Source: a virus (Duplodnaviria > Heunggongvirae > Uroviricota > Caudoviricetes). From it: a stretch of DNA of 51,763 bases. Where the stretch lies: positions 1-51,763 of the IMG/VR virus record IMGVR_UViG_3300045923_000005. One strand, given 5' to 3'. The notes beneath the pieces were generated by a model that was not told the origin of the DNA, made no database searches, and was given only the letters and a program-made list of their open reading frames with translations. The position numbers were made by a program, and so were the translations under genes. Numbering within the stretch: position 1 is the stretch's first letter; each line of letters begins with the position of its first letter. Shown here piece after piece: positions 1 through 23,811 of this stretch.

Positions 1-303
1 GTTCGCCAGATTCTTGTAGATCAGCGACTTGTACGGACCACCAACGCGCAGACCCACAACTTCGAAGCTGTCGTGGTTGAACTTGGTGTGGAGCGGCGGC
101 AGACGCAGGAACGGCGCATACCGGTTGTAGGTGACCTCTTCCTTGGTAGGTCCACCGGCTGTCTGCAATTGCAGGCGCATGTCAAACATGGCACCGTAGG
201 AGAGGGAGCTCTTGACGCGCGTCAGTCCGTGGTCCTTACAAACCGCGTCGATAGCGGCCAGGAGGTCCCTGTGGACGAGTTGCGCATGCTGTTTGCTGAT
301 CAT
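1..303 (-). CDS. hypothetical protein, runs off left edge (MISKQHAQLVHRDLLAA...)
   Basis: Manual translation; ATG overlaps the TAA of the 303..521 ORF (TAATG); open to position 1. Confidence 0.7.
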   Translation of the reverse strand, partial: MISKQHAQLVHRDLLAAIDAVCKDHGLTRVKSSLSYGAMFDMRLQLQTAGGPTKEEVTYNRYAPFLRLPPLHTKFNHDSFEVVGLRVGGPYKSLIYKNLAN

Positions 304-521
304 TACGACAGATCCTTTTCGACTTGAAGGGACAGGAGGTATTTGGCCGCGTTCAGAATCTTGCGGGCACCCTCCGTCTGACCGTGGACCATCATTTCCT
401 GGGCGTCGCTGAGGAAACCGGAAACGTAGACCAATTTGTGACCGAGCGCCTGCTCGTATCCGGCCTTAAGATCGGCGAAGGTTTCACCGCACATTTCAAT
501 CTGTTGTTTAGTAGTTAGCAT
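303..521 (-). CDS. hypothetical early protein (72 aa)
   Basis: ORF; ATG lies 7 nt after a TATAAT box. Confidence 0.7.
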   Translation of the reverse strand: MLTTKQQIEMCGETFADLKAGYEQALGHKLVYVSGFLSDAQEMMVHGQTEGARKILNAAKYLLSLQVEKDLS

Positions 522-603
522 ACAGAGTATTATACGCTTAATCGGTCACTTAGGGTGCTGATTTAACTTATTTTCGAACAACATTTACGAAACGTTAACT
601 AGT
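522..603 (-). promoter_or_regulatory. repeated promoter copy 1: GTTAAC site, AAGTTAAATCAGCA box, gcgTATAAT; no canonical -35
   Basis: -10 at 529-534, box at 556-569, GTTAAC at 594-599; near-identical spacing in copies at 1422 and 2032. Confidence 0.75.
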
Positions 604-608
604 ACCGT

Positions 609-809
609 TTACTGGATCACTTTGAAGTCAGGATCATGGCGGTGATGCACCCAGCGGCTCTTGTCCGGCCGACCGGGAGGTTGAACCAGCAGCCATGGGC
701 CGCGCTCCGGATTGAATTGAACAGAATCGGCCACCCGCACCAACTGCCATTCCGAGCCTAGCTCGTTGACGCGGTTCCGGCCTTTCTGTGTAATGCCTTC
801 GAGTATCAC
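609..809 (-). CDS. hypothetical protein (66 aa)
   Basis: ORF with GTG start overlapping an upstream TGA. Confidence 0.65.
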   Translation of the reverse strand: MILEGITQKGRNRVNELGSEWQLVRVADSVQFNPERGPWLLVQPPGRPDKSRWVHHRHDPDFKVIQ

Positions 810-1179
810 TTGACTTGTTCCTTGGGCAACCAGTCAGGATTCTTGGTGTAGAACGCCAGCACGGCAGCCTTCACATCATCCATGTTCTGAAAACGAGCCT
901 TCAACTGCTTCCAGACGAAGGAGGCGTTGGGTTGAGAGGATCACCATGGTAGTCAGCGATCTTCACGATCAACTCAGCGGGACCCCAACCAGAAGAGCAG
1001 TCCTTGGCCAGACGCGCTTTGTAGTCAGCGAAGAGGGCACCCTGATCACCGGTGAACTTGCAGACCACATAGGCGACCTGCTTGTCGTTCACAGACGCAG
1101 ACGGCCAGGAGCGGCTCTGAAAAGAACGATACCGGCCAGTCGGCGCATCGGCAACCTTCCACTTGATCTTGAGAGTCAT
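806..1179 (-). pseudogene. hypothetical protein apparently split by a 1-nt frameshift near 930
   Basis: ORF 901..1179 ends abruptly; the -1 frame continues FVWKQLKARFQNMDDVKAAVLAFYTKNPDWLPKEQVK to a TGA at 806-808 that overlaps the next start. Confidence 0.55.
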
Positions 1180-1421
1180 TACTTTACCTCAATCCCAGAA
1201 ATCTCAGTCGTGTCGAAGTACTCGTAACCGGCTTCCGTCGAATGCGACGCAAACTCGATCTCAATGTGCGCGCCAGTGTAACCTTCCCAGCCGCGACCAG
1301 ACTCCATGTGCACCGCAAACTCGGTGACTTCATGAGCCTTCATCACAGCCTGGACAGCGGCGATGAACGCAGCGGCCTTGGCCTGGGTGGCTTCCTTGCG
1401 CTTTTCAGTTTCTGTAGTCAT
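1179..1421 (-). CDS. hypothetical early protein (80 aa)
   Basis: ORF; ATG 7 nt after TATAAT. Confidence 0.7.
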   Translation of the reverse strand: MTTETEKRKEATQAKAAAFIAAVQAVMKAHEVTEFAVHMESGRGWEGYTGAHIEIEFASHSTEAGYEYFDTTEISGIEVK

Positions 1422-1503
1422 GGGAAGTATTATACGCTTAATCTGTCACTTAGGGTGCTAATTTAACTTAATAGCGAACAATATTTCCAGAACGTTAACT
1501 AGT
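1422..1503 (-). promoter_or_regulatory. repeated promoter copy 2
   Basis: -10 at 1429-1434, box at 1456-1469, GTTAAC at 1494-1499. Confidence 0.75.
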
Positions 1504-1564
1504 ACCGGTTTAGCACACGATGACGGTGTCGTACAGTGCACGTCGTGCACGCTCTTCATCTTCG

Positions 1565-1807
1565 TCAGCGGTACGCTTCAGCCGCGTCCTGTTGATCGCG
1601 GGCAAGATCATACGCCTGCTGAGCTTTCTCATCCAAGATCAGAGCGTAGTGGGAAGCGAGAGGGAAAAGGTAGATGTTGTCGAAGCAAAGAGCGACCATC
1701 TTGCCGGTCTCATCGCGGACGATCCAGTAGTTCTTGCCGAGGGTAGGCTGGATCTCACGGAGCTCGTACTTCATTCCAGAAATACGCTTGTCGAAGACTT
1801 TGTACAT
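1565..1807 (-). CDS. hypothetical protein (80 aa)
   Basis: ORF translationally coupled (TAATG) to the upstream ORF. Confidence 0.65.
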   Translation of the reverse strand: MYKVFDKRISGMKYELREIQPTLGKNYWIVRDETGKMVALCFDNIYLFPLASHYALILDEKAQQAYDLARDQQDAAEAYR

Positions 1808-2031
1808 TAGGCGCGCACCAAGCCGGAGGGAGATTCAATCAGGACGTTACCGTCGAAATCCACAGGACCAAACCACTCAGGCTCATCACCGTCAACGTGA
1901 ACCAGATAGCCGAAGTCAGTGACTTCAACGACGGTGGACATAGCAGCCGGAGTACCGAGGAACTCACTAGCATTCACTAGGAGACGATCACCGACGCGGC
2001 CGACGAAACGAGCAGGTATTTCTTTATTCAT
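1807..2031 (-). CDS. hypothetical early protein (74 aa)
   Basis: ORF; ATG 7 nt after TATAAT. Confidence 0.7.
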   Translation of the reverse strand: MNKEIPARFVGRVGDRLLVNASEFLGTPAAMSTVVEVTDFGYLVHVDGDEPEWFGPVDFDGNVLIESPSGLVRA

Positions 2032-2110
2032 GTGGACTATTATACGCCTAATTCTTATGAATAGTTGCTGATTTAACTTATTCTTAAGATATTTTCGAGC
2101 GCTAGTTAAC
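2032..2110 (-). promoter_or_regulatory. repeated promoter copy 3
   Basis: -10 at 2039-2044, box at 2066-2079, GTTAAC at 2105-2110. Confidence 0.7.
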
Positions 2111-2313
2111 GGTTCTGAACTTCTTCAATGTTCGGGTAGACCTTCAGAACGGCGCGCCATAGCTCGATGGCCTGTAGAAAGGAATCTCTCCTCGTCTCTA
2201 GGAGCCGGATGGCAGAGAGGTGGCCTTGTGACTGAGTCATTTTACTTAATGCCCGAAGGGAGGAGATCTCCTCCGACAGTTCGTCTATCCGGTTCTGTAA
2301 GAACAGAATCTGG

Positions 2314-2766
2314 TCAAAACAAGCACGGTTCTGGCAGATGCTCGGTGTACTTGATACCGGCTTGCTGAGGGAGAGCCTTGCTGGCGATGAAACGGGTCTT
2401 CATCTTCTCGTACTTGTCCTTTGGAATCCCGTGGATGGATCCAAACTCGCCCAGGCAAGTGATGATCTCTACCTGGTAGCCGTGCTTGTGACCCAATTCC
2501 ACATAGTCACGGAAGGCGCGCCAGCGGGTGTAGCAACCAACGGCTATCACAGACTTGCCGTCGTTGATCTTGGACAAAACCTGATCATAGCAAAGGTCAA
2601 TAGCTCGGCCCAGCCGTTCCTCTGACCATTCATAGACACCAGCATCGTTGTAGAGGAATTGGTCGGTCTCATGGTAGGTGATACCCTTCTCCTCGGCCAT
2701 TTGGGCCGCAAGAGTAGACTTACCAGAACCTGGCAGGCCTCGGACGATGTAGAGAGTCTTGTTCAT
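2314..2766 (-). CDS. P-loop kinase / AAA_33-like protein
   Basis: Walker A GLPGSGKST near N-terminus; start moved to MNKTLY because a promoter sits in the longer N-terminal extension. Confidence 0.75.
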   Translation of the reverse strand: MNKTLYIVRGLPGSGKSTLAAQMAEEKGITYHETDQFLYNDAGVYEWSEERLGRAIDLCYDQVLSKINDGKSVIAVGCYTRWRAFRDYVELGHKHGYQVEIITCLGEFGSIHGIPKDKYEKMKTRFIASKALPQQAGIKYTEHLPEPCLF

Positions 2767-2775
2767 ATGACGACT

Positions 2776-2804
2776 ATTATACTCGAACACAGCACAGAAG
2801 TAAA
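2776..2804 (-). promoter_or_regulatory. sigma70-type promoter TTTACT-17-TATAAT
   Basis: Direct reading; 9 nt upstream of ATG at 2766. Confidence 0.7.
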
Positions 2805-2863
2805 GTGTGACCAAAATACCAGCAGAAATGGTGATTAAGGTGAGCATGGAGCTCCTGGAAGGT

Positions 2864-3178
2864 TTAGAGTTTGATCGTTCGATTTCCTATCGCTAGACCA
2901 ATATTGCCACCTGTGATGTGGATCACAGTTCCCATCTTGAAGAAGACCTTGACTAGCTTGCCGTTATTTAGCGCGTTGGTGAAAACAAGTTCCAAGCGAC
3001 TGTTTTTAGTGGCTTCCAAACTTTCATCAAAGTGAATCAATGCGCCACCAATTGAAAGGTTGAGAACTTTCCCCCAAAGACGTTTGCCATCTTTGATGAC
3101 CATGACGGCTACGTGATTGTGTAGGGTCATGTTGCGCTGCCGGGAGCGCTTCTCCGTCCACTTGATCATCGGAAGCAT
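2864..3178 (-). CDS. PilZ-domain protein (putative c-di-GMP binder)
   Basis: RSRQR (RxxxR) and NLSIGG (N/DxSxxG) motifs in the canonical order in a ~100-aa beta-rich protein. Confidence 0.7.
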   Translation of the reverse strand: MLPMIKWTEKRSRQRNMTLHNHVAVMVIKDGKRLWGKVLNLSIGGALIHFDESLEATKNSRLELVFTNALNNGKLVKVFFKMGTVIHITGGNIGLAIGNRTIKL

Positions 3179-3192
3179 GCGGATCCTTGAAG

Positions 3193-3267
3193 TGGTGCTC
3201 TGTTAGGGAGTCGAACCCTAGCCTGTTGCTTACGAAACAACTGTGCTACCGGTAACACTTACAGAGC
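3193..3267 (-). tRNA. tRNA-Thr(CGT)
   Basis: Cloverleaf, loop TTCGTAA, GGTTCGACTCC, encoded CCA. Confidence 0.85.
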
Positions 3268-3282
3268 GTTATCAGATATTTA

Positions 3283-3807
3283 TTAGATCTGTCGGATGAA
3301 CTCTTTGAGACCCATGTTCACTGGATAGATCCGGTTCCGCTGCAAAGTTGTGCGCCGAGTGTATGGTTCATAGACGTGGTGGAAGTTCTTCATCACTTCC
3401 ACCTGCTTAGCATTATACAGATCGGTGGCAACCTTGTGCGCTGCCTGGCGTTCAGCATTCTCTTTGTTCTGTTCATCAGTCAGACGAACTCTGCTCAGCC
3501 ATTGCACATGGTGTAGTGTGGGATACTCAGGACGTGGACCGGTAGCCGGTTCGATGTGTTTCTCCCAGTCGAGCTCCTCATTGGTTTCCTTGTGACGGAG
3601 AACCCTGCGCTCTTCATCTACCATCACGACACAACCAGATTCGTAATCGCTGTCCTTGTCGTCGCGGATCTTGCCCAGGTAGGTGCCCATGCGTACCGAG
3701 ACGCTGTGACTGTAGCCGGTAGTTACGATCAAGACCTTATCACCAACATTGATGATGTGACCTAGATCATTCTCATAGGGAAGTTCAACTGGTTTGCGCA
3801 ATGCCAT
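3283..3807 (-). CDS. hypothetical protein (174 aa)
   Basis: ORF with GGAG RBS. Confidence 0.7.
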   Translation of the reverse strand: MALRKPVELPYENDLGHIINVGDKVLIVTTGYSHSVSVRMGTYLGKIRDDKDSDYESGCVVMVDEERRVLRHKETNEELDWEKHIEPATGPRPEYPTLHHVQWLSRVRLTDEQNKENAERQAAHKVATDLYNAKQVEVMKNFHHVYEPYTRRTTLQRNRIYPVNMGLKEFIRQI

Positions 3808-3830
3808 ATTAACTCCATCTTAATAAATTA

Positions 3831-4071
3831 TCAACAAGTCCGTAGCCGCGATTCTGTTCTATCCTAACATTTGCCTAAAGACCTTTCGATCAATCCCACT
3901 CCGTTGAGTGGGTGCTCTAACCCGAACCAATAAGCAAAGGATTCCCTGGTTCTGTTTAGATTGCTGGCTGTATCACGGTAGTTTGTCGCTTTCGCTCCTA
4001 CTCGTCCTCTGCGCCAGTCGCGAACTTCCTCGACAAACATCCTTATCTGCCGCGTTAGGTCGACTTGTTGA
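3831..4071 (-). ncRNA. rnpB: compact RNase P RNA
   Basis: P1 UCAACAAGUC/GACUUGUUGA; P2 CCUAAC/GUUAGG; P3; GAGGAAGUUCGCGA with AACAGAAUCGCGGCUAC forming P4 with bulged U; P5 CUGG/CCAG; P15 UCUA/UAGA with L15 GGGU. Confidence 0.85.
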
Positions 4072-4154
4072 ATCAGTGCCACATTTCCTGCACCCTTAAC
4101 CGGTCTTGGGCTCTCAGACGGTGTGGCGTCCGTTTGGCTGCTAATCCAGCCGCG

Positions 4155-4622
4155 TTAATCTGTCTGCGTCGGTTGGATCTTGTAAACCCGCATCTGTGTG
4201 AATGACTGTCGGCGGATCTCTTGCTTCTTGATTCTGGAGTAAGAGATGCTGTAGTTCCTACGTCCATCAACCAGAGGATATCGCTTGTGAAGCTTACCAT
4301 CGGTTGTCTGGTAGTAATAGACTTCCTTCATGATGTTCAGACTGACTGAAGTGACCTTGCCACCACGTTCTCTGAATCCTGCAAAGGTACCAACCGTGAC
4401 TTTGGCTCCTCGGTTAGCCGTGACACCAACACAAAGATCTCCAGTCGTGATGATCTGGCCTATGCCATTCACCCAGCTACCAGCCGTCAATGTGCTCTTC
4501 TTGGCTTGGCGCTTCAAGCGCTCGGAAGCCCAGTAGAGCTTAGTTTGTTCATCTTGAAGGTCGCGCTTCTTGCGTTCGATCTCTTGAAGTTCTTTTGCGA
4601 TTGTTTGTGCGTCACGTGTCAT
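4155..4622 (-). CDS. hypothetical protein (155 aa)
   Basis: ORF with N-terminal coiled coil. Confidence 0.65.
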   Translation of the reverse strand: MTRDAQTIAKELQEIERKKRDLQDEQTKLYWASERLKRQAKKSTLTAGSWVNGIGQIITTGDLCVGVTANRGAKVTVGTFAGFRERGGKVTSVSLNIMKEVYYYQTTDGKLHKRYPLVDGRRNYSISYSRIKKQEIRRQSFTQMRVYKIQPTQTD

Positions 4623-4940
4623 AATGTATCACCAGTTCACGAATATAGTTGCGGTACTCAATCGGCTTGAGAAGGAACTCGTTGTACCGGGCAAGGAGCT
4701 CTCCCTGGAGTAGTGGAACAAGATTCCTTATCTCCATCATGACGAAGCAACGATCGGCCCATACCTCTTCTTTACTCGTCATATCAAATGTATCCTCGGA
4801 GTTTGTTATGCCCTATCCACTTAGCAACGGCGGGAGTGACATTATTTGTCCCAAGGCTTATCACAGGTTGCAATACCTGAACATTGAGCCTCTATACTCA
4901 ACGAACCGATTGGGCCTCTTACGAGGTTAACCGGAAACTC

Positions 4941-5030
4941 TGGCAGAAGGTAAGGGATTTGAACCCTTGTGCCCCTTTCGGAACCATCAGTTTAGCAAAC
5001 TGCGCCATTAGACCACTCTGGCAACCTTCT
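4941..5030 (-). tRNA. tRNA-Ser(GCT)
   Basis: Cloverleaf with long variable arm, loop TTGCTAA, G discriminator, CCA. Confidence 0.9.
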
Positions 5031-5033
5031 ATA

Positions 5034-5639
5034 TCAATTACGCAAATGTTGAACGTTCTGGTGAATCCTTGAAGTCTTCGGAATGACAGACAACAAGTAA
5101 TCCATCTGATCGGCCTTCACCTTGCGGTTCTTCAGAAGTAGCTTCTCCTGAAGGTTAGGTGCGTAAGGAACATACAGAAGCTGCATTCCTGCTTCCTCCG
5201 GAGTCCTGTCTGCCTTACCGTGGTTACAAGCAGCGCACGACGTTACCGTATTCGTCCAAGTGTGATCACCACCGCGTGAGCGAGGCATCACATGATCAAT
5301 GGTCAAATGAAGATCAATTGACTTCGTGTCCTTATGGACGATACCACAGTAAGCGCACATGTAGCAGTCACGAGCGTACAGAATAGGACGCTCAGCGAAC
5401 TTGGTTACACGGAACTTGAACTTCTCACCAAGCACTGGGCCGGTGACCATAACAATAGATGAGATCTCAATCTTAGAGAGCTTGCCAGTTGAATTGCGGC
5501 CACCGACATAAGTGCGCACGTGAGATCCTAGGTTACAAATAACCCTATCCTCTGCGTAAGCCTTAACGGTGTCCTGGTAGTTCAACCAGTCCCGAGGGTT
5601 TCCACCCTTATCGACAACCAACACATCCATCGCTGACAT
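5034..5639 (-). CDS. HNH endonuclease
   Basis: CAYCG...TIDHVMPRSRGG...NTVTSCAACNHGK. Confidence 0.9.
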   Translation of the reverse strand: MSAMDVLVVDKGGNPRDWLNYQDTVKAYAEDRVICNLGSHVRTYVGGRNSTGKLSKIEISSIVMVTGPVLGEKFKFRVTKFAERPILYARDCYMCAYCGIVHKDTKSIDLHLTIDHVMPRSRGGDHTWTNTVTSCAACNHGKADRTPEEAGMQLLYVPYAPNLQEKLLLKNRKVKADQMDYLLSVIPKTSRIHQNVQHLRN

Positions 5640-5691
5640 AAATCACCTATCAATGTAACATCATGATATTATTTAGCACGCAGCGCGAATT

Positions 5692-5769
5692 TGGAGTTGT
5701 GGATCGGATTTGAACCGATGGTGTTACTGTTTTGCAGACAGATGCTTTGGGCCGCTCAGCCACCACAAC
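5692..5769 (-). tRNA. tRNA-Cys(GCA)
   Basis: Cloverleaf, loop CTGCAAA, U discriminator, CCA. Confidence 0.85.
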
Positions 5770-5775
5770 ATAAAC

Positions 5776-6105
5776 TTATCTCTTGCTTGGACCTTGTCCT
5801 GGGATCAACAGTCCCTTGGAAGGCAATTCCACCATACCATGAATTTTACGATACAGTGCTTCAAGTTCGGCCGGAGCCTCTAGTCCATAGACCAGCTTCG
5901 TATCATCGAACGTGAAGATAAAATCAGAACCTGCCAGCACTCCCCACGGCATTGGTACGAAACCAATCTTACCGGATTGAGGATCCTGCTGCATCAATAG
6001 CTGAACGCAATGCTGAACCTTCAGCGGTGCTACGTTCGGCTCGGAAACTCGTTGTGCGACCAAATCAACGTCGCTGATCAATTTCAATAGTACAATGTTG
6101 CTCAA
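5776..6105 (-). CDS. conserved T4-like hypothetical protein (possibly Sm-like fold)
   Basis: NIVLLKLISDVDLVA...IGFVPMPW...LEALYRKIHG pattern recalled from T4-like phage proteins; fold is inference. Confidence 0.5.
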   Translation of the reverse strand: MSNIVLLKLISDVDLVAQRVSEPNVAPLKVQHCVQLLMQQDPQSGKIGFVPMPWGVLAGSDFIFTFDDTKLVYGLEAPAELEALYRKIHGMVELPSKGLLIPGQGPSKR

Positions 6106-6113
6106 GTCACACC

Positions 6114-6269
6114 TCAGAATTTATAGCCAAAACCAATCATATGTTGTTTGTCGCAATGATAATGTGTCTTCTGGTCCTTGTCGATACGTTTATCACAAAA
6201 CGCATAGATACGGGCATTGGCGCAGCCCGTTAAGGCTGCGAACACAATCACCATAGCGACCGTCTTCAT
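6114..6269 (-). CDS. small lipoprotein (51 aa)
   Basis: Manual translation MKTVAMVIVFAALTGC..., lipobox LTGC; promoter directly upstream. Confidence 0.65.
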   Translation of the reverse strand: MKTVAMVIVFAALTGCANARIYAFCDKRIDKDQKTHYHCDKQHMIGFGYKF

Positions 6270-6276
6270 GTATACT

Positions 6277-6305
6277 ATCATACTCTATCTAACTGTAAGA
6301 GTAAA
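6277..6305 (-). promoter_or_regulatory. promoter TTTACT-17-TATGAT (leaderless)
   Basis: -10 is 7 nt from ATG at 6269. Confidence 0.7.
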
Positions 6306-6392
6306 CAATTGAGATCGATGGCTTGTTTGGTCTCGAGAATCCTCGTTAGAAGACACTCCTACGAAATATGGGACTTGACAAATCATCGAAAC

Positions 6393-6423
6393 TGGAGCCC
6401 CAACACAGAATCGAACTGTGAGG
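6393..6423 (-). pseudogene. tRNA 3' fragment (T arm, acceptor 3' strand, CCA)
   Basis: CACAG-TTCGATT-CTGTG-TTGGGGC-T-CCA with no 5' half. Confidence 0.7.
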
Positions 6424-6432
6424 AACGAATAA

Positions 6433-6506
6433 TGGTGCCCTAGTTTAGAATCGAACTAAATACTGTTTCTTACCAAGAAACTGTCTTACCATTAGACTAC
6501 AAGGGC
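6433..6506 (-). tRNA. tRNA-Thr(GGT)
   Basis: Cloverleaf, loop TTGGTAA, CCA. Confidence 0.85.
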
Positions 6507-6508
6507 AT

Positions 6509-7036
6509 ATGAACAAATCAGAAGCGGGAAAATTGGGAGGCGCTGCCTCCATAGCAACATCCAACGCAAAACGAGCAGCGAATATAAAACACTATCTAGA
6601 AAATCCCACACTATGTAAGTGGTGTGGGAAGGTGATAGATTATGACCGTAGGAAATACACTTTCTGTTCTCATTCTTGTGCTATCAAATTGACCAATAAC
6701 AGATTAGGAACAGGCAAGCCTAAATCAGACAAACTCACCCTTGAAAAGATACGTGATAATCGAGAGCAAAAAATACTTTCTGGCAGCTACACCGATAGAT
6801 ATTATCTGAAAAGATATCTCATAGATTTGAGAGGACATAAATGTGAAGACTGTCTTCTAACAGATTGGAAAGTATCACCCATTCCACTTGAACTGGATCA
6901 TATCGATGGGAATGCTGGGAATAATCTCCCATCAAACCTTAGATTGTTGTGTCCTAATTGCCACGCGATGACTCCTACTGCTCATGGTAGGAATAGGGGC
7001 AACGGTCGTAAGTCAAGAGGATTGCCTTTGAATTGA
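6509..7036 (+). CDS. HNH homing endonuclease (only convincing plus-strand gene)
   Basis: CEDC...LELDHIDGNAGNNLPSNLRLLCPNCH; N-terminal CKWCG/CSHSC zinc finger. Confidence 0.9.
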   Translation: MNKSEAGKLGGAASIATSNAKRAANIKHYLENPTLCKWCGKVIDYDRRKYTFCSHSCAIKLTNNRLGTGKPKSDKLTLEKIRDNREQKILSGSYTDRYYLKRYLIDLRGHKCEDCLLTDWKVSPIPLELDHIDGNAGNNLPSNLRLLCPNCHAMTPTAHGRNRGNGRKSRGLPLN

Positions 7037-7038
7037 TA

Positions 7039-7112
7039 TGGTGACCGTACAAGGAATCGAGCCTTGGTCTTCGCCGTGTCGTGGCGTTGCTCTACCATTG
7101 AGCTATACAGTC
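7039..7112 (-). tRNA. tRNA-Val(GAC), atypical
   Basis: Cloverleaf and CCA; loop ACGACAC lacks U33; T loop CTCGATT. Confidence 0.7.
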
Positions 7113-7124
7113 GAAGAAGATGAT

Positions 7125-7335
7125 TGATGCGGATTGGACTACCGCTCGTGGTGCTTTAGACAACAGTTCAGGATTTGTATCCCAGCGTATCAAAGACCCT
7201 GTCTTCGCTGGTAGTTGTCATCGACTCTTTAGAAGCATGTGCTGTACTCAGCTGACCCGATCTTACAGGCTTACACTCACTCTCGCTCTCGGCTTTCGCC
7301 GACCCGAATCTTCACCCGGCACATCCCGGGAGATC
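7125..7335 (-). ncRNA. manA-like structured RNA
   Basis: ORF-free, hairpin-rich (CGGC-GAAA-GCCG); segments GAGUACAGCACAUGCUUCUAAAGAGUC, CAGCGAAGAC and CAAAUCCUGAACUGUUG resemble the manA motif from recall only. Confidence 0.5.
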
Positions 7336-7342
7336 AATCAAA

Positions 7343-7420
7343 TGGTGCCTCAGGAGGGAGTCGAACCCACAATGGAGCGGATTTTAAGTTCGCCGCGTTT
7401 GCCAGTTTCGCCACAGAGGC
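7343..7420 (-). tRNA. tRNA-Leu(TAA)
   Basis: Cloverleaf, loop CTTAAAA, short variable arm, CCA. Confidence 0.85.
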
Positions 7421-7424
7421 ATGA

Positions 7425-7519
7425 TGGTACTCCATACAGGACTCGAACCTGCCCGTTGCAGCCAGTCCGGCCACTCTCGCGCGCTTATAAAACGCACCCG
7501 CTCACCTGAGCTATGGAGC
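7425..7519 (-). tRNA. tRNA-Ile(TAT) with ~24-nt extra arm
   Basis: Acceptor, D and T arms intact; loop TTTATAA; CCA. Confidence 0.7.
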
Positions 7520-7529
7520 ATATAAAGAT

Positions 7530-7626
7530 TGGACGCTAATGGGGTTCGTTACCGACTGATGATTGCTCATCAAGAACCGATTGCGGTTCTTAGCGGTTCC
7601 TTTGGTGTTAGCGATTACTGCGTCCC
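7530..7626 (-). ncRNA. structured small RNA
   Basis: Terminal GGACGC/GCGUCC stem; hairpins AAGAACCG/CGGUUCUU and UGAUGA-GCAA-UCAUCA. Confidence 0.5.
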
Positions 7627-7671
7627 ATGTCAACCAGATAGAGACCTTACGGTCTAACGCAGACCTAAACT

Positions 7672-13790: not shown

Positions 13791-14121
13791 TTTTCGGCGG
13801 TGGTCGTTGCCCACCCATATGTATTGAAGAATATGTTCCGGTTACGTAATCCGGAGTCATCGATGGCTTTACAACCAAACGCTAGTCCATGTTGAGAGGA
13901 CGCTGACCGTATCAAAAGAAATCTTGTTCCAGCGGTTCTGTGGTAGAGTGACCGCGTGCCTGGCATGGGAGAGGGCCCATGAGTTGCGTCGTCAACGTCA
14001 CCTTGTTGGTGACTCCCGGTTTCGACTATCGAACATCCTGTTCGACCTTCTAGTGCGGTTCTCTGACGACCCCATCGAAGGTTCAGGTGCGGTTTGTGCC
14101 GCTACCTCAACCATGAAGACT

Positions 14122-14149
14122 ATTATACTCTAGTTTTCTCAGAAGTAAA
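14122..14149 (-). promoter_or_regulatory. probable main promoter of the RNA operon, TTTACT-16-TATAAT
   Basis: Direct reading; immediately upstream of the non-coding tract. Confidence 0.7.
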
Positions 14150-14263
14150 GTCTAAGAATTGATCTTAATCAATTCGTAATGTTCTGAGGTCTTAAGTTAA
14201 GTACTTCAAGTATCCTATATAGTAGAATCAGGTCAATTCAGTCTTAAGTAATTGATCTAACTC

Positions 14264-14446
14264 TTAAAATTCGTCATCATCCATCAAGTCAATCGCGCGG
14301 CGAGTGTCGAACCGTTCACGGTGATAGGCTTCCGAGCGCCGATGCGGTGCAGCAGCCTGCTTCTTTTCCGTCTTCCTGACATTCCGGTTAATCCTTGTGG
14401 GCTTCCGGTAGTCGATCTCTTTCTCAGTGTTTCGTGGGTCCGCCAT
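14264..14446 (-). CDS. small basic hypothetical protein
   Basis: ORF with GGTGG RBS-like sequence. Confidence 0.55.
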   Translation of the reverse strand: MADPRNTEKEIDYRKPTRINRNVRKTEKKQAAAPHRRSEAYHRERFDTRRAIDLMDDDEF

Positions 14447-14648
14447 ATGTCTCGGCCAGATAGGCCTCTCGTTCAGCTACAGAATGGATGATAGCCTCGT
14501 ATTGCATTTCTGGCATACCGGCTAGCTCTTTGACCGTGAAGTACATGCCACCATAATCGAAATACACCGCGTGTAAATTCAATTTGCCTTCCCAGCGGTA
14601 GATGCCACCCGCTGAGTTAGCTATTTCTATGGCAGTATTTACGTCCAT
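14424..14648 (-). CDS. hypothetical protein (74 aa)
   Basis: ORF; ATG 7 nt after TATAAT. Confidence 0.65.
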   Translation of the reverse strand: MDVNTAIEIANSAGGIYRWEGKLNLHAVYFDYGGMYFTVKELAGMPEMQYEAIIHSVAEREAYLAETYGGPTKH

Positions 14649-14655
14649 GGCTTAT

Positions 14656-14684
14656 ATTATACCGTGGTCAGTCTTAGAAGTAAA
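14656..14684 (-). promoter_or_regulatory. promoter TTTACT-17-TATAAT (leaderless)
   Basis: Direct reading. Confidence 0.75.
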
Positions 14685-14828
14685 GTCTGGGCAGGTGTGA
14701 TGGACATGAATGCGGGGATCGTCTTTGTGTTGGAGCAACCACGTCTCACCTATGGCAAATATGCCTAGTATAAAGATGAGTAGAATGATCGATCCTAGTC
14801 GCAACGTCAACTCCAGGTTGCCCTGGAG

Positions 14829-15209
14829 TTATTTAGCCTTTCGTGCGTATTTCTTCTTGGCGTAACGCTTTGTGAGTTTATCTACGTTGACATTGATGAT
14901 GTCTTGAGCCTTGATATCACTCTTATGAGCAACGGCCAGTAGATAGTAGAGAGCGTCGCCCAACTCTTTCGTAAGTTCTTTCTTCTCTAGCTTCCGCTCG
15001 TCCCGGACGTCCTTCTTGGATCGTTCAGTAACCTTACCTATCGCCACCACGAACTTCAGGACAGCCTCGACAACCTCGGCGGTCTCGCCAGCCAAGCCGG
15101 TCGTCATGACGTAGTTGTCCTTGAGAGTATACTCGCGCTTGCCGGCCTTAAGAGGACGGCTGCTGGACCACATCTTGGCAACCCAGGCTTGGTATTCGGT
15201 GATGTTCAT
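14829..15209 (-). CDS. mazG: MazG-like nucleotide pyrophosphohydrolase
   Basis: GLAGETAEV...ELGDALYYL...NVDKLTKRY. Confidence 0.8.
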   Translation of the reverse strand: MNITEYQAWVAKMWSSSRPLKAGKREYTLKDNYVMTTGLAGETAEVVEAVLKFVVAIGKVTERSKKDVRDERKLEKKELTKELGDALYYLLAVAHKSDIKAQDIINVNVDKLTKRYAKKKYARKAK

Positions 15210-15469
15210 ACCGGCTCCCGCTTGAACGTCATAATGCCGTCCAGCTTCACTATCTTGGCCTCGGCATTCTCACAGACCTTGTCATCGCTGACGTAACCTT
15301 CCATAAGGAGAAGCTTGATGACACCTGCTAGGTCGCCCATCTCCAATTCAAGATGATCTTGGTTGCGTGTATTGACACCGAACCTTACCTGCTTGGAGGC
15401 TGCCTGGATGACCTCGGCCGCTTCTTCTTGGAGGATCTGTAGGAGTTCTTCGCGACGGTTAGCTGGCAT
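15206..15469 (-). CDS. second MazG-like protein
   Basis: LQEEAAEVIQAASK..RFG...EMGDL. Confidence 0.7.
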   Translation of the reverse strand: MPANRREELLQILQEEAAEVIQAASKQVRFGVNTRNQDHLELEMGDLAGVIKLLLMEGYVSDDKVCENAEAKIVKLDGIMTFKREPV

Positions 15470-15972
15470 TAGTGATTCTCGATTGGTGTGCCGTAAGTGG
15501 GCACAAGCACTTCTTTGGTTCGTACCGGCTGGTTATCCAGGGCACGCTGTAACTGGTTCAGTTGGTCTTGCTTTTGTGCCAACTGGCTCTTTAATGTTCG
15601 GTTCTCTTCCCGGAGATTGACTAGTTCGTCAGCGTCCTTCATGGATTGGAGAATGTTATCGTAGCCCACTACAAGGCAACGCTCATAGTAGATCTGGAAT
15701 GCGTCCGTGGGTCGCATGTTAGATGCGTATACCTGATGCCGGATAAGTGTAATAGGGAACGATTGGATAATCGGTTGTGAAATGTAATGTTCAAAATCAG
15801 ACTCGGCAACTCCGGTAGCCTTGATTGTGGCAATCGCCTGAGCGAACTTGCCTACCTTAGTGCACTGCTCGCTCAATTGGCGACTAGCTTCGGTAGAGTC
15901 ATCGTGAATGGCAGGACCGGCTAATGCCAGCCCTGCCACCATGACGCCCATCATTACGAATAGGCTCTTCAT
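15469..15972 (-). CDS. exported protein with coiled coil
   Basis: Signal peptide; C-terminal heptad-like stretch. Confidence 0.65.
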   Translation of the reverse strand: MKSLFVMMGVMVAGLALAGPAIHDDSTEASRQLSEQCTKVGKFAQAIATIKATGVAESDFEHYISQPIIQSFPITLIRHQVYASNMRPTDAFQIYYERCLVVGYDNILQSMKDADELVNLREENRTLKSQLAQKQDQLNQLQRALDNQPVRTKEVLVPTYGTPIENH

Positions 15973-15973
15973 A

Positions 15974-16900
15974 TTACTTGCTCAGCACCTTCGTGGTGAT
16001 GCGGTCTTCTACAACGCGGAGCTCTTGATGAGTCACAGCATCGACCGGAGCAGCGGCTACAGGAGCCTCTACCGGAGTAGGAGCGGCCAGCGGAGGGCAA
16101 TCCTCACCAGCTTCTGCCATGGCTTCCTTGATGTCCGCACCTTCGGCATGCATCTGCATACGCTTACAGGCTGAACGCTCAAGACCGGCCTCACGCAGTA
16201 GTTTGGTCTGCTTGATCAGGACGCAATTCTTGTCAACGTAAGTCTTACCAAACGTCAAGCCAAGGATTTGAGTCTGAGCACCGGCAGAAGCCGAACCCAA
16301 GCAGGTGTCCATACCACTCGTCAGTGACGCACTATAAGCAGTGGCTACCGGCTGACGATAGGTCTTCGCAGCTTCATAGGTCACATTGGTGTTATTGGAA
16401 CCGTTACCATTGCCATCAGCAGAGGCACTGGATGTGCCACCGGATACGTTGCCTACAGATGAAGTAGATCCAACAGCACCAATGCTAGTGGTTTGAGTAT
16501 TAGTATTCTTAACAGCACCAGAGGCAATAGAGCTAGAAGCAGAACCGCCGGCACCACCAGTCCCACCATTTGCAACGTTGGAAACATTGTTGGTGTTGGC
16601 ATTGCTGACTTTGTTCGTGTTCGTGCCACCGGTAGCGCTCACATTGTTGGTGTTTGAACTGTTGCCCGAATTATTTAGGGATTGCTGTTGCTGCTGATTG
16701 GCATTGCCGCCAGTAGCAGAAGCATTCCCACCAGTTGCCTTAGAAGAAGAGCTCGCACCGGCTGATGCCGATACATTCACTTCCCATTGGCCAGTGCTCT
16801 GGTTGCAGTTACAGTTCGGCGGTTGCGGGCCATTACAAGCCTGCGCTGCCGTTGCGCCCAAGAGCGCTAGAGCCAGGAAGGCTCCTAGAAAAGATTTCAT
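15974..16900 (-). CDS. exported G/S/N/T-rich low-complexity protein with Cys-containing C-terminal domain
   Basis: Signal peptide; N-V-S/T repeats; four Cys in the C-terminal region. Confidence 0.7.
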   Translation of the reverse strand: MKSFLGAFLALALLGATAAQACNGPQPPNCNCNQSTGQWEVNVSASAGASSSSKATGGNASATGGNANQQQQQSLNNSGNSSNTNNVSATGGTNTNKVSNANTNNVSNVANGGTGGAGGSASSSIASGAVKNTNTQTTSIGAVGSTSSVGNVSGGTSSASADGNGNGSNNTNVTYEAAKTYRQPVATAYSASLTSGMDTCLGSASAGAQTQILGLTFGKTYVDKNCVLIKQTKLLREAGLERSACKRMQMHAEGADIKEAMAEAGEDCPPLAAPTPVEAPVAAAPVDAVTHQELRVVEDRITTKVLSK

Positions 16901-16947
16901 GATATCTCCATTGATGTAAAGTCAATTCAAATCAAACGTCACGTTCA

Positions 16948-16976
16948 ATTATACTCTAACAAACTTTAAGAGTAAA
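16948..16976 (-). promoter_or_regulatory. promoter TTTACT-17-TATAAT (leadered)
   Basis: Direct reading; GGAG RBS before ATG at 16900. Confidence 0.7.
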
Positions 16977-17286
16977 AGACTTGGAAGAGTATTTTGTCCG
17001 ACCATATTAAGTTAACCAACATCAGTACATCGATGATGGCTATGGCCCAGAACAAAATCTTGTAGCGGCGATCCGCAATGGCTAGGATGCCACCGGCGAG
17101 AAGGATCAACCAGAAGAGTTTTACGAACAGAATCCCATTAATGCCGAACTGGGCTATAATATAGGCCATGGATGGGTTGGCTTCCATACCTGACTCAAAG
17201 GTAAGGATGGTCTTGGTTATTAGGAAGTCAACCACACTCAGGGCAGCAAGTATCCAATACACAATCCAAATCTGCTTCTTAACCAT
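16966..17286 (-). CDS. membrane protein (DUF5658-like)
   Basis: LSVVDFLIT...G.EANP.M motif and 3 hydrophobic helices; start set at MVKKQIW. Confidence 0.6.
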   Translation of the reverse strand: MVKKQIWIVYWILAALSVVDFLITKTILTFESGMEANPSMAYIIAQFGINGILFVKLFWLILLAGGILAIADRRYKILFWAIAIIDVLMLVNLIWSDKILFQVFYS

Positions 17287-17488
17287 ACGCGGCTGCGCAG
17301 TTGGCTGAGCAGAATGCACCGATGGTCTTGTTTGGATGACCGAGTGACTTCCAGTATCTGGAAGCAGGCATAAAGATAGGAGGGTATGGTTGGACTTGTT
17401 CGCAACCAACGGTGGCGTTACACTTCAAACAGAACCACGGCATTGGGACCGGAGTATAGACGTCTAGATTTTCTGCGCTACTCGCCAT
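17279..17488 (-). CDS. small Cys-rich hypothetical protein
   Basis: CxxC and FCSxxC motifs; coupled to neighbours. Confidence 0.45.
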   Translation of the reverse strand: MASSAENLDVYTPVPMPWFCLKCNATVGCEQVQPYPPIFMPASRYWKSLGHPNKTIGAFCSANCAAAYG

Positions 17489-18024
17489 GGCTTGCCGTGC
17501 TCATCATAAAACATGTTGTAGAGACCTTCGGTTCGACCGTAGGCTTCAAGTTCCCAAGGGGAATCATAGTAAGCCCACTCGGCCGCGAATGGACCGGCTG
17601 CTTTCTTTGGCTTGGGTTCAAAATATTCAACACCATGGAACATCGTTCCAATGATGTTTTCACCTTTATATAGATCCTTCATCTCACCCAGGACGTACTG
17701 CTTGACGTGTACTAGCTCATGGGCAAGATACTGAAGGGTCTTCTTGTATTTCGTGAGCGGCTTGGTTGCCTTTTTGCTGATGGCGAACTTAGCTAGAGTG
17801 ACGAAGTAATGATCCTTGGTGTCAGATGAAGGATTCATCCAGGCTTCATACTTGTTGAGATCGTCTCGTTCGTCAGGGTCAACTTCATTGCGGTCAACGA
17901 AGTCAATTTGAATGGTTAGCTTTTTGATGCGATACGGTGTAAGGAATCGACCGAGACAATAGCGTGCAAACTGTTTTACAAGCTTGACATCGCGAGGGTT
18001 ATCTAATCCCTTGACTATCAGCAT
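17464..18024 (-). CDS. HExxH metallopeptidase-like protein
   Basis: LAHELVHVKQY...PWELEAY. Confidence 0.75.
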   Translation of the reverse strand: MLIVKGLDNPRDVKLVKQFARYCLGRFLTPYRIKKLTIQIDFVDRNEVDPDERDDLNKYEAWMNPSSDTKDHYFVTLAKFAISKKATKPLTKYKKTLQYLAHELVHVKQYVLGEMKDLYKGENIIGTMFHGVEYFEPKPKKAAGPFAAEWAYYDSPWELEAYGRTEGLYNMFYDEHGKPWRVAQKI

Positions 18025-18065
18025 CGGGTGGCTCCAAGAGGGTTGGCTACCCTCTATTTAGAGGA

Positions 18066-18440
18066 TCACTCAGAAAGCATTGAAACCGAAGAAGAAACAG
18101 AGATACCGTTGATTTCCTTAAGAGAATCGAGGCGGAAGGCTCTCCAACCCTTGGCTTCGACATCCCATACTGAGATTGCAGTGGAATCTGTCTCGGTCAG
18201 GGTGCTTCGTCCACGATTTTCCTCGGGAAGGAAAGCATCGTTGAGTGTGGCCTTCATGGCGCGTTCCTGGCCATTTGCCTTGGTGAACACGACATGTACG
18301 ACGCCTCGACGAAGAGCGGCATGTAACTGTGAAATATCCATCTTCATTTCCTCGGCATGATGTTTGCAAATTTCTCTGTACGAAGGTTCACAACCACCGG
18401 TTTTTTCCAGTGCGCAACCGGTAAATGGACATTTTGACAT
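18066..18440 (-). CDS. WYL_2/DUF2693-like SH3-fold protein
   Basis: VVFTKANGQERAMKATL...VWDVEAKGWRAFRLD. Confidence 0.7.
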   Translation of the reverse strand: MSKCPFTGCALEKTGGCEPSYREICKHHAEEMKMDISQLHAALRRGVVHVVFTKANGQERAMKATLNDAFLPEENRGRSTLTETDSTAISVWDVEAKGWRAFRLDSLKEINGISVSSSVSMLSE

Positions 18441-18479
18441 CGCTCAATCCTCAGAGGGTTTATCCGACTGTAGGATTCT

Positions 18480-18508
18480 ATTATACTCTATGGATGTGTA
18501 AGAGTATA
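18480..18508 (-). promoter_or_regulatory. promoter TATACT-17-TATAAT
   Basis: Direct reading; same spacing as other copies. Confidence 0.55.
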
Positions 18509-19039
18509 GCCGTACTGGGCGATGAAGTAGGCGTCAACGATGTCTGAGACAGGAGAGCCGATGTTCTTACCGGAACCCATGGTCTGGAGTTTGATGCCGG
18601 TCTGCTTGACGAAGGCTTCGTACATCTGTTCCTTCTTGGCATTACCCTTACCGGTTGCCACCTTCTTGATGACGGTAGGAGGGATGGTCGTAATACCGTA
18701 GTTGAGCGCCCACAGTTTGTGCTTTAGCAAACCGGTATTCTCGGCGATATGAAAGACGCGTCCTTTACTACCCATGGAGTAATCTTCAATGTAGACTGGA
18801 GTGTTTGGAGACACCCTTAAACGCTCTAGTTGTTTGATGAAGTAATCAGATATCTGATGGAATCGCTCTTCCTGGGTCTTGTATTCAGAATGTAACTGAC
18901 CATTGACTTGCCCTAGGAAGTGGGGTCCTTCATATTTCTTCACGTCCGTAAGAAAATAGAACTCGCTGTTGTTCCAGTCCGGTTTGAACTGGATACACAT
19001 ACAAGGGCAAGACATACTATAGTCAAATGATACAATCAC
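18488..19039 (-). CDS. RuvC-like (RNase H fold) nuclease
   Basis: SFDYS...IEDYS...KKVATGKGNAKKEQM...DIVDAY. Confidence 0.8.
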   Translation of the reverse strand: MIVSFDYSMSCPCMCIQFKPDWNNSEFYFLTDVKKYEGPHFLGQVNGQLHSEYKTQEERFHQISDYFIKQLERLRVSPNTPVYIEDYSMGSKGRVFHIAENTGLLKHKLWALNYGITTIPPTVIKKVATGKGNAKKEQMYEAFVKQTGIKLQTMGSGKNIGSPVSDIVDAYFIAQYGYTLTHP

Positions 19040-19042
19040 AAA

Positions 19043-19237
19043 TTAACCCCAGTTGGTGTCTTCGTCCTCGTCGGTATCAGAGTCATCGTCTACGTCATGC
19101 TCTTCGGTATCCAGGTCAATTGGATTACCACAGAAGCAGCACATATCCGGCATGCCGTCGGTCATAGCGGTGTCGAATGTGACTTTATATTCAGAGTCAC
19201 AGCCTTCACATACGATTTGGATAGTTTCCTTGCTCAT
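19043..19237 (-). CDS. zinc-ribbon protein with acidic tail
   Basis: CEGC...CCFCG; D/E-rich C-terminus. Confidence 0.65.
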   Translation of the reverse strand: MSKETIQIVCEGCDSEYKVTFDTAMTDGMPDMCCFCGNPIDLDTEEHDVDDDSDTDEDEDTNWG

Positions 19238-19246
19238 CGTCTCCCC

Positions 19247-23335: not shown

Positions 23336-23811
23336 AGTATACCTAATCTTCGTTGATTACCCATCATTCTTTCACTTTGGGCTTTCCTCAATTCAATTCG
23401 CTTCATAGGGTTTAATGAACCCTTCTTCGTCTTTGCTATATTTTCTCGGTGACTGTCGCTCTTCTTAACACCTGTTATAGTCTTTGAATGTTTGAGATTC
23501 GTTTCTGCGCTTCTCTTGTATCCTCTCATTCCACCCTTACCACCGTCGTTCAAATTCAATAACGGACCGGTGTTCAAATCTTTGCGACCTATTTCTATTA
23601 TGAGTAGATTCTCAAACTCATACGCTTCAAGTTCAATATCAAAGGCTATCAGGCCAACTTGTGGCTCTGTTCCTTCCCTTATGAGTTTCTGTAGTTTCTG
23701 CACGAAAGGATGTTTGTCTTTGCGACGTCTGTGATACGCCACTCGATCCGCAGAACCTTTGCCCACGTAGAACGGGGAATTGTTATGGGAATAGATATAG
23801 ACGTAGAACAT
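23332..23811 (-). CDS. GIY-YIG homing endonuclease with NUMOD3-like tail
   Basis: FYVYIY...FYVGKG...LNLNDGG; start MFYVY set by leaderless promoter. Confidence 0.85.
   Translation of the reverse strand: MFYVYIYSHNNSPFYVGKGSADRVAYHRRRKDKHPFVQKLQKLIREGTEPQVGLIAFDIELEAYEFENLLIIEIGRKDLNTGPLLNLNDGGKGGMRGYKRSAETNLKHSKTITGVKKSDSHRENIAKTKKGSLNPMKRIELRKAQSERMMGNQRRLGIL

Follow-up and report, generated by a model that had tools for sequence, protein, structure and literature searches.

Does a large phage carry a gene for its own, drastically shortened RNase P RNA? RNase P RNA is considered a ribozyme universal to cells, and a full-text literature search revealed no description of a phage- or virus-encoded one. 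The question was raised by a sequence-only reading of a 51,763-nt stretch of viral DNA (hereafter, the window), which proposed a phage-borne RNase P RNA, reduced in size, within a 241-nt segment. The window comes from a 115.8-kb IMG/VR viral contig, ~64% complete, and the stretch was found in peat metagenomes, in one DNA run and one RNA run. The contig encodes a T4-type gp43 DNA polymerase, ribonucleotide reductase, and a DnaB-like helicase; its gp43 polymerase is at most 44% identical to the polymerases of cyanophages and other T4-like phages. The window contains 36 tRNA genes, all on the minus strand, spanning positions 3193–13256.

The contig contains a single copy of the RNA gene, which sits within a 347-nt gap separating two minus-strand ORFs, with the closest tRNA genes 564 nt downstream and 870 nt upstream. 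The arrangement is as follows.

4155–4622, minus strand: upstream neighbour, a 155-aa ORF ending at 4155
3831–4071, minus strand: the whole RNA gene, 241 nt (full-model match to the family covariance model R1 described below, 146.6 bits, E 2e-42)
3283–3807, minus strand: downstream neighbour, a 174-aa ORF starting at 3807

A promoter and terminator scan of positions 3200–5100 revealed no credible site for the 241-nt RNA, the counts being at the level of shuffled sequences; the one promoter-like match coincides in part with the start codon of the following ORF. Contigs from the peat metatranscriptome cover all of positions 1–20000 at flat depth, as does the DNA run, which may be the source sample; this pattern is uninformative on transcription, RNA ends, or level.

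Anatomy of the 241-nt RNA

RNA position i corresponds to window coordinate 4072 − i. The elements of the RNA, in 5′ to 3′ order, are listed below.

4062–4071, minus strand: P1 5′ strand (RNA 1–10), 10 perfect pairs with 3831–3840
4054–4059, minus strand: P2 5′ strand CCUAAC (RNA 13–18), pairing with 3863–3868
4031–4052, minus strand: P3 hairpin (RNA 20–41), from the single-sequence fold, with covarying basal pairs
4018–4031, minus strand: CR-I and P4 5′ strand GAGGAAGUUCGCGA (RNA 41–54), ungapped alignment to E. coli G61–G74
4023, minus strand: bulged U of P4 (U49), placed by family covariation, invariant
4013–4017, minus strand: P5 5′ strand (RNA 55–59), pairing with RNA 104–108 (3964–3968)
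4006–4012, minus strand: P6 pseudoknot 5′ strand GCAGAGG (RNA 60–66), directly after P5
3969–4005, minus strand: insert at the specificity (S)-domain position (RNA 67–103)
3961–3963, minus strand: J5/15 CAA (RNA 109–111), equivalent to E. coli C247 A248 A249
3916–3960, minus strand: P15 (RNA 112–115 with 153–156), J15/16, P16/17 hairpin (RNA 121–147), and L15 3′ side
within 3916–3960, minus strand: P16 (RNA 121–125 with 143–147), covarying, as does P15
3934–3940, minus strand: P6 3′ strand CCUUUGC (RNA 132–138), in the P16/17 loop, seven pairs
3920–3924, minus strand: L15 3′ side CGGGU (RNA 148–152)
3880–3912, minus strand: two hairpins at the P18 position (RNA 160–177 and 181–192, the latter with a GAAA loop), from the fold
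3863–3879, minus strand: CR-IV-like J18/2 UUUAGGCAAAUG (RNA 193–204), running into the P2 3′ strand
3863–3868, minus strand: P2 3′ strand GUUAGG (RNA 204–209)
3844–3857, minus strand: CR-V ACAGAA (RNA 215–220) and P4 3′ strand UCGCGGCU (RNA 221–228)
3831–3840, minus strand: P1 3′ strand (RNA 232–241), pairing with RNA 1–10

The sequence-only reading had described P1–P3, both halves of P4 with a bulged U, P5, and P15/P16, and all of these were recovered on the minus strand where it had placed them. The perfect 10-bp P1 that it reported joins RNA 1–10 with 232–241, and the L15 GGU lies within CGGGU at RNA 148–152. Three elements go beyond that reading: the P6 pseudoknot, a covarying stem-loop at the S-domain position, and the two extra hairpins at the P18 position.

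P1, P2, P3, and P5 follow each other in the canonical type A order. The geometry of P4 (three pairs, the bulged U, five pairs) aligns without gaps with positions 61–75 and 347–361 of E. coli M1 RNA; five of the eight pairs differ between the two RNAs yet stay paired, four of them being changed on both sides. Numbered directly along the E. coli gene, the counterpart of U49 is U69. A110 is the equivalent of A248, and G150, G151, and U152 of L15 are the equivalents of G292, G293, and U294. J15/16 has the sequence AACAG. The CR-IV-like segment of the window, AGGCAAAUG, aligns to E. coli CR-IV, AGAUGAAUG, and its AG..AAUG is kept in the family. Compared with shuffled sequences, the single-sequence fold had a z value of −2.97.

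Helices P7–P14 of the specificity domain, with CR-II and CR-III, have given way in the window RNA to one small stem-loop. Between the P5 strands there are 44 nt when P5 is drawn with five pairs and 46 nt with the four-pair P5 usual in the family, which bears out the original estimate of about 46 nt; in E. coli M1 RNA, 164 nt are found there. The insert that occupies this position consists of a 29-nt stem-loop (RNA 68–96) with a GAAA-capped inner hairpin, followed by UGAUACA. In the family, double changes occur at four of the four modelled stem pairs and 81% of cells pair. Because it covaries and keeps a GG-GAG ... ACC core across the family, the small stem-loop is, as judged by comparison of the relatives, under selection.

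A family of phage RNAs and its relation to RNase P RNA

A homologue of 245 nt, at about 105774–106018, was revealed by blastn in an unannotated 258-nt gap in the tRNA cluster of Stenotrophomonas phage DLP6 (KU682439.2); RNase P is unmentioned in the DLP6 genome paper. The P1 strands of the DLP6 homologue are unlike those of the window in sequence and are still complementary, and its P6 is formed by GUGAGAA with UUCUCAC. At the P18 position, DLP6 also has two hairpins, with sequences unlike the window's, while most relatives have none there. Two pattern scans of IMG/VR viral contigs, one anchored on CR-I/P4 and the other on CR-IV/CR-V, extended the family to at least 42 loci and at least 41 distinct relatives of 154–408 nt. 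The covariance model R1 was built from 17 compact members; its matches comprise 42 listed loci, 41 of them distinct, with scores of 33–189 bits. A further match to the family model in the window, at 23490–23561 on the minus strand, is weak (11 bits, E about 0.03–0.05) and is most likely noise.

In the R1 alignment of the 41 distinct relatives listed, 90.2% of cells pair, compared with 33–44% when partners are slid by one to three columns; double changes are seen in 32 of 34 pairs, and none of 500 shuffles reached the observed values. Since these sequences were fitted to the model, the alignment leans toward the structure; P2, P5, and P15 covaried already in plain MAFFT alignments. Among the 41 listed relatives, each of helices 1–5 pairs in 85–100% of cells and contains double changes. 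P1 has double changes at all eight modelled pairs, and in P2 98.3% of cells pair and six of six pairs covary. Pairs 2–4 of P5 covary as well (UA/AU in a 22:19 ratio, then GC/CG/UA/AU). P4 was outside the model structure, and it pairs in 327 of 328 cells, with double changes in six of eight pairs and an invariant bulged U.

The P6 pseudoknot was evaluated by matching the 8 nt that follow P5 with each sequence's own P16/17 loop, the control being segments cross-matched between sequences. At least five contiguous Watson–Crick pairs were formed by 37 of the 40 distinct relatives listed, compared with 7.6% of the cross-matched controls. A per-sequence test of the longest helix against a shuffled loop did not discriminate, and column-based counts on the model alignment gave no usable result for P6, its columns not being structurally aligned.

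GAGGAA and ACAGAA served as search filters, and their invariance in the 41 sequences is therefore by construction. Outside any search pattern, the L15 GGU and both adenines of J5/15 show no variation in any of the 41 relatives listed, and the GC after P15 is invariant or nearly so. A third scan, for which L15, the P15 3′ strand, and CR-IV were the sole anchors, yielded 11 matches. Within the 170 nt inspected upstream, GAGGAAGUUC was present in 10 of these; ACAGAA was present in eight, the variants being ACAGGA (one match) and ACAAAA (two). The matches add further compensatory changes in P4, and conservation of P4 with its bulged U thus holds also in sequences picked without the CR-I/P4 motif. 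Taken at the level of sequence comparison, the data argue that the whole catalytic domain (P1–P6, P15–P17, CR-I, CR-IV, and CR-V) is kept under purifying selection, and that the selected residues include the bulged U of P4, the A248 equivalent in J5/15, and the GGU in L15.

The search with covariance models that the sequence-only reading had recommended gave nothing for the window RNA itself, an outcome which that reading would have taken as evidence against its own proposal. A scan of the window at Rfam 15 gathering thresholds produced no match at the 241-nt locus; cmscan of positions 3500–4500 with all 4227 Rfam families, at E ≤ 10 and with permissive filters, returned no RNase P family; and the bacterial type A model RF00010, run on the whole contig, had no match at the locus. 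The type T, archaeal, and type B models (RF02357, RF00373, and RF00011) did not match positions 3500–4500 at E ≤ 10 either. Since the window RNA goes undetected by Rfam, its membership depends on a chain of family-level links. The RF00010 gathering cut-off of 100 bits, which the window does not reach, is exceeded by a 303-nt relative (L013) located among the tRNA genes of a complete 176.8-kb phage contig, which matches the full model with 178.2 bits. This relative has a P4 sequence identical to that of the window and keeps P7–P12, only P13/P14 being gone. Two members with the canonical GAGGAAAGUC core, L220 and L191, score 73.6 and 70.7 bits on RF00010 (E about 1e-20); in the 158-nt L220, the model aligns 158 S-domain positions to 8 nt and P18 to nothing. 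R1 covers the window and all three of these RF00010-scoring members.

When the whole E. coli K-12 chromosome was searched with R1, the best match fell within rnpB and on the correct strand (3270224–3270388, 16 bits, E 0.068); the alignment spans J5/15, P15, P16, GGGU, CR-IV, the P2 3′ strand, and CR-V. The E-value alone is marginal, but a top match within one 377-nt gene among 9.3 million positions is not due to chance. We conclude that the 241-nt RNA is almost certainly homologous to RNase P RNA. By its predicted helices it is of type A rather than type B, because P6, P16, and P17 are present. The central proposal of the sequence-only reading, i.e., a size-reduced, phage-borne RNA of bacterial type A with the catalytic core and GGU intact and most of the S-domain gone, is thus upheld as far as sequence can tell.

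Compared with E. coli M1 RNA (rnpB, RF00010), the phage RNA has the same helix order, with both pseudoknots, P4 and P6; CR-I, CR-IV, CR-V, the J5/15 CAA, and P15/P16 with CGGGU are common to both. It differs in size (241 versus 377 nt) and in lacking P7–P11, P13, and P14, with which bacterial RNase P RNA reads the tRNA elbow; neither a canonical P12 nor CR-II/CR-III was seen in it. Where bacterial type A RNAs have a P18 hairpin with a GNRA loop, two apparently unrelated hairpins, one of them with a GAAA loop, occupy the place; in P4, AAGUUCGCGA stands instead of the usual bacterial AAAGUCCGGG, and the gene is virus-encoded with no rnpA gene alongside.

In vitro activity has been reported for engineered C-domain or ‘Micro P’ RNAs, weak for the RNA by itself and higher with protein. 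These RNAs consist of the same C-domain-only parts but are laboratory constructs, whereas the phage RNAs form a natural, selected series of ~400–154 nt. Natural near-total loss of the S-domain with retention of the C-domain is known from the type T RNase P RNA of Thermoproteaceae (Pyrobaculum, about 200 nt, RF02357). Type T RNA is archaeal and chromosomal and has archaeal proteins, while the phage RNA has the bacterial arrangement of P6, P15, P16, and L15 GGU; the two are convergent reductions, not relatives. Type T RNA is the P12-less case cited in PMC8172020. Reduced bacterial forms comprise the RNA of Mycoplasma fermentans and CPR RNAs that lack P12, P13, P14, and P18 (PMC8172020). These are RNAs of the bacterial type that have lost P12–P14 and P18, as the phage RNA appears to have done, and the detection of the CPR RNAs similarly requires score thresholds below the Rfam cut-offs (PMC8172020). 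They are, however, the cell's only and essential copy and keep P7–P11, whereas the phage RNA is an extra, viral copy without P7–P11. The closest published reductions (Mycoplasma fermentans, type T, and CPR forms) are all cellular.

Outside IMG/VR, unannotated homologues were found in published huge-phage genomes of 635 and 735 kb (LR745206.1:502103–502278; LR756501.1 and LR756503.1:181389–181509); LR745206.1 and LR756501.1 carry no annotation. The 303-nt and 158-nt relatives had no blastn match among GenBank phages. Compact forms with the P4 sequence of the window are almost absent from prokaryotic genomes, with two matches in 185,579: L239 (JAAXWV010000224.1, 3053 nt, from a Roizmanbacteria bin) and L240 (JANXME010000285.1, 2277 nt, from an Actinomycetes bin), both probably mis-binned phage DNA.

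tRNA genes, CCA ends, and the putative function

In many members of the family, the RNA gene lies close to tRNA genes. A tRNA gene lies within 500 nt of the element at 27 of the 42 loci listed, often 0–8 nt away, and every tRNA gene within 2 kb of the element at these 42 loci is on the same strand. The DLP6 element stops 7 nt short of tRNA-Arg(CCG), and 5′-end cleavage of this tRNA would free the element's own 3′ end. In three related phage contigs, complete tmRNA genes (118–124 bits) were found ~1 kb from the mini RNase P RNA and tRNAs.

L141, 7926–8314: tmRNA gene (RF00023)
L149, 9098–9482: tmRNA gene (RF00023)
L166, 5523–5903: tmRNA gene (RF00023)

The 241-nt RNA shares the neighbourhood and strand of phage tRNA arrays and tmRNA, but these are RNase P substrates, and the 241-nt RNA would be the processing enzyme.

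All 36 tRNA genes of the window encode the 3′ CCA, 35 by the ARAGORN body end and one by eye (ACCA directly follows the called end, which was read as a shifted boundary). The base at −1 is U in 28 of the 36, C in seven, and G in tRNA-His, where G is expected. Many leaders have AUUAU or GUUUAU in common, and many of the genes are only 4–10 nt apart. An unusual 95-nt tRNA-Ile(UAU) with a long extra arm (7425–7519, minus strand) was called by ARAGORN and is unreported by the Rfam tRNA model.

The earlier suggestion that the reduced ribozyme relies on CCA recognition fits the window phage and its closest relatives and fails as a description of the family. Phages that bear the element split sharply into those in which all tRNA genes encode CCA (the window, DLP6, L105, L086, and L076) and those in which almost none do (0 of 30, 1 of 21, 2 of 25, or 1 of 28 tRNA genes); the L15 GGU is invariant in both groups. 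Because relatives keep GGU though their tRNA genes are almost devoid of CCA, recognition through CCA alone would fit the clade of the window but does not generalise. In the CCA-poor phages, cleavage would require prior addition of CCA. Processing of the dimeric tRNA-Pro/Ser precursor of T4 is, according to a review, more efficient when tRNA-Ser carries the 3′ CCA.

As the sequence-only reading had noted for the window, no RnpA-like protein is encoded: a six-frame search with Pfam PF00825 found none in the contig, of which ~64% is available so that a partner gene could lie elsewhere, nor in four complete family-bearing phage genomes. If a protein cofactor is needed, it would therefore be the host's.

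Taken together, we consider it probable that the 241-nt RNA is a bacterial type A RNase P RNA in miniature, encoded by a functional gene of a T4-like phage, and that it cuts the leaders of phage pre-tRNAs. The RNA would be transcribed together with the minus-strand tRNA island, fold into a C-domain, bind host RnpA (the likely partner, because the phage encodes none), and cleave the 5′ leaders of phage pre-tRNAs. A pre-tRNA would be held mainly via its acceptor stem, the U at −1, and the encoded 3′ CCA pairing with the L15 GGU, while the P4 core, together with the bulged U and the adenines beside it, would hold catalytic Mg in place and the A248 equivalent would contact the −1 base. The phage would gain extra, or host-independent, capacity for tRNA 5′-processing during infection. 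RNase P activity persists in bacterial C-domain constructs, above all when the protein is present, and RNase P activity of the phage RNA itself is, by our estimate from its sequence, a little better than an even prospect. Several considerations weigh against this reading: the window RNA itself matches no Rfam RNase P model, no promoter-like site lies just upstream of it, and several relatives keep GGU although their tRNA genes are poor in CCA; loss of the modules that read the T-loop would be expected to lower affinity and fidelity; and host RNase P is normally stable and sufficient, which makes the benefit to the phage conjectural.

A wider version of the proposal, which we consider less likely than not, extends it to the family: large phages would carry RNase P ribozymes of their own, trimmed stepwise from ~400 nt to a 154-nt catalytic domain, and those without an S-domain, including that of the window, would work without reading the tRNA elbow, some of them perhaps without protein or with a new phage protein. 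Maturation of 5′ ends would then be independent of host RNase P and perhaps protected from attacks on it.

Other readings of the same data differ mainly in what the conserved core is for. The RNA might be an active RNase P-type ribozyme whose main substrates are not ordinary pre-tRNAs and for which, in the absence of an S-domain, any stem resembling an acceptor and ending in a 3′ CCA would serve, e.g., the putative CCA-ended non-cloverleaf RNAs of the island, tmRNA precursors, or phage or host mRNAs. A reduced S-domain combined with an invariant GGU would suit such an enzyme, as would the tmRNA genes near the element in three related contigs, but it is true tRNA genes with which the element is tightly and exclusively co-oriented, the tRNAs of the window, by their U at −1 and their encoded CCA, resemble ideal substrates of a type A enzyme, and no specific alternative substrate was identified; we regard this reading as compatible with the data but unlikely. 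Less likely still is a decoy or regulator that binds host RnpA or pre-tRNAs and thereby redirects or throttles host RNase P. P3, P4, and J18/2, which are the RnpA-binding regions of bacterial RNase P in published structures, are retained, and the phages encode no RnpA, both of which would favour a decoy. A decoy for the protein would, however, have no need for the bulged U, ACAGAA, the A248 equivalent, and GGU, residues important to chemistry and CCA binding more than to protein binding, to be invariant across 41 divergent sequences, or for P4 geometry to be preserved through compensatory changes.

The covariation also bears on two readings in which the RNA has no catalytic function, and it effectively excludes both of them. 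That the element is what remains of a captured host rnpB, decaying and without function, is strongly disfavoured and highly improbable: it is smaller than any bacterial rnpB and goes unrecognised by Rfam, as a remnant might, but there are compensatory changes in every helix across 41 sequences along with invariant core residues, the element recurs across many large phage contigs that are unrelated, as well as in the cultured phage DLP6, and the divergence of the relatives excludes recent copies of one sequence. The least credible proposal is a small protein-coding gene, or a chance resemblance. An open frame does overlap the region (a 72-codon GTG ORF, 3864–4082, minus strand), but it has no Pfam match, and P3, the S-position insert, and the P18 position vary among relatives through indels of any length, with no loss of pairing. 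Counts of stop-free stretches in the six frames are non-discriminating for such short sequences.

Should the miniaturised type A RNA prove active, the family would be the first viral RNase P and would constitute a natural deletion series, from 408 to 154 nt, that defines the minimal bacterial-type ribozyme. It would also offer a direct test of substrate recognition resting on the acceptor stem and CCA end alone, and the translation-related genes of large phages would then include an enzyme as well as substrates. Phage DLP6 with Stenotrophomonas maltophilia D1571 provides a workable experimental system. Independently of activity, there is an annotation gap, since most members, including the DLP6 copy and the copies in the 635-kb and 735-kb huge phages, are missed by Rfam 15.

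Neighbouring genes in the tRNA island

The two ORFs that flank the RNA gene match no Pfam or PHROG family. The 174-aa ORF (3283–3807) is homologous to the DLP6 gene located just upstream of the DLP6 copy of the element (L001:934–1455; 31% identity, E 1e-15), and the 155-aa ORF (4155–4622) weakly shares with it an N-terminal GHxxxxGD...VGTYLG region. A tblastn search for homologues of the neighbouring ORFs beside the element at ~50 other loci found none, and the 174-aa ORF is therefore not proposed as a protein cofactor.

Further genes were recognised in and next to the island. An ORF for an HNH endonuclease (Pfam HNH_5, E 1e-12) lies within the tRNA island at 5034–5639 on the minus strand. Just downstream of tRNA-Thr(CGU) (3193–3267), also on the minus strand, are an ORF encoding a stand-alone PilZ domain (2864–3178, E 8.5e-7) and an AAA_33 P-loop kinase-like ORF (2314–2847, E 9e-10).
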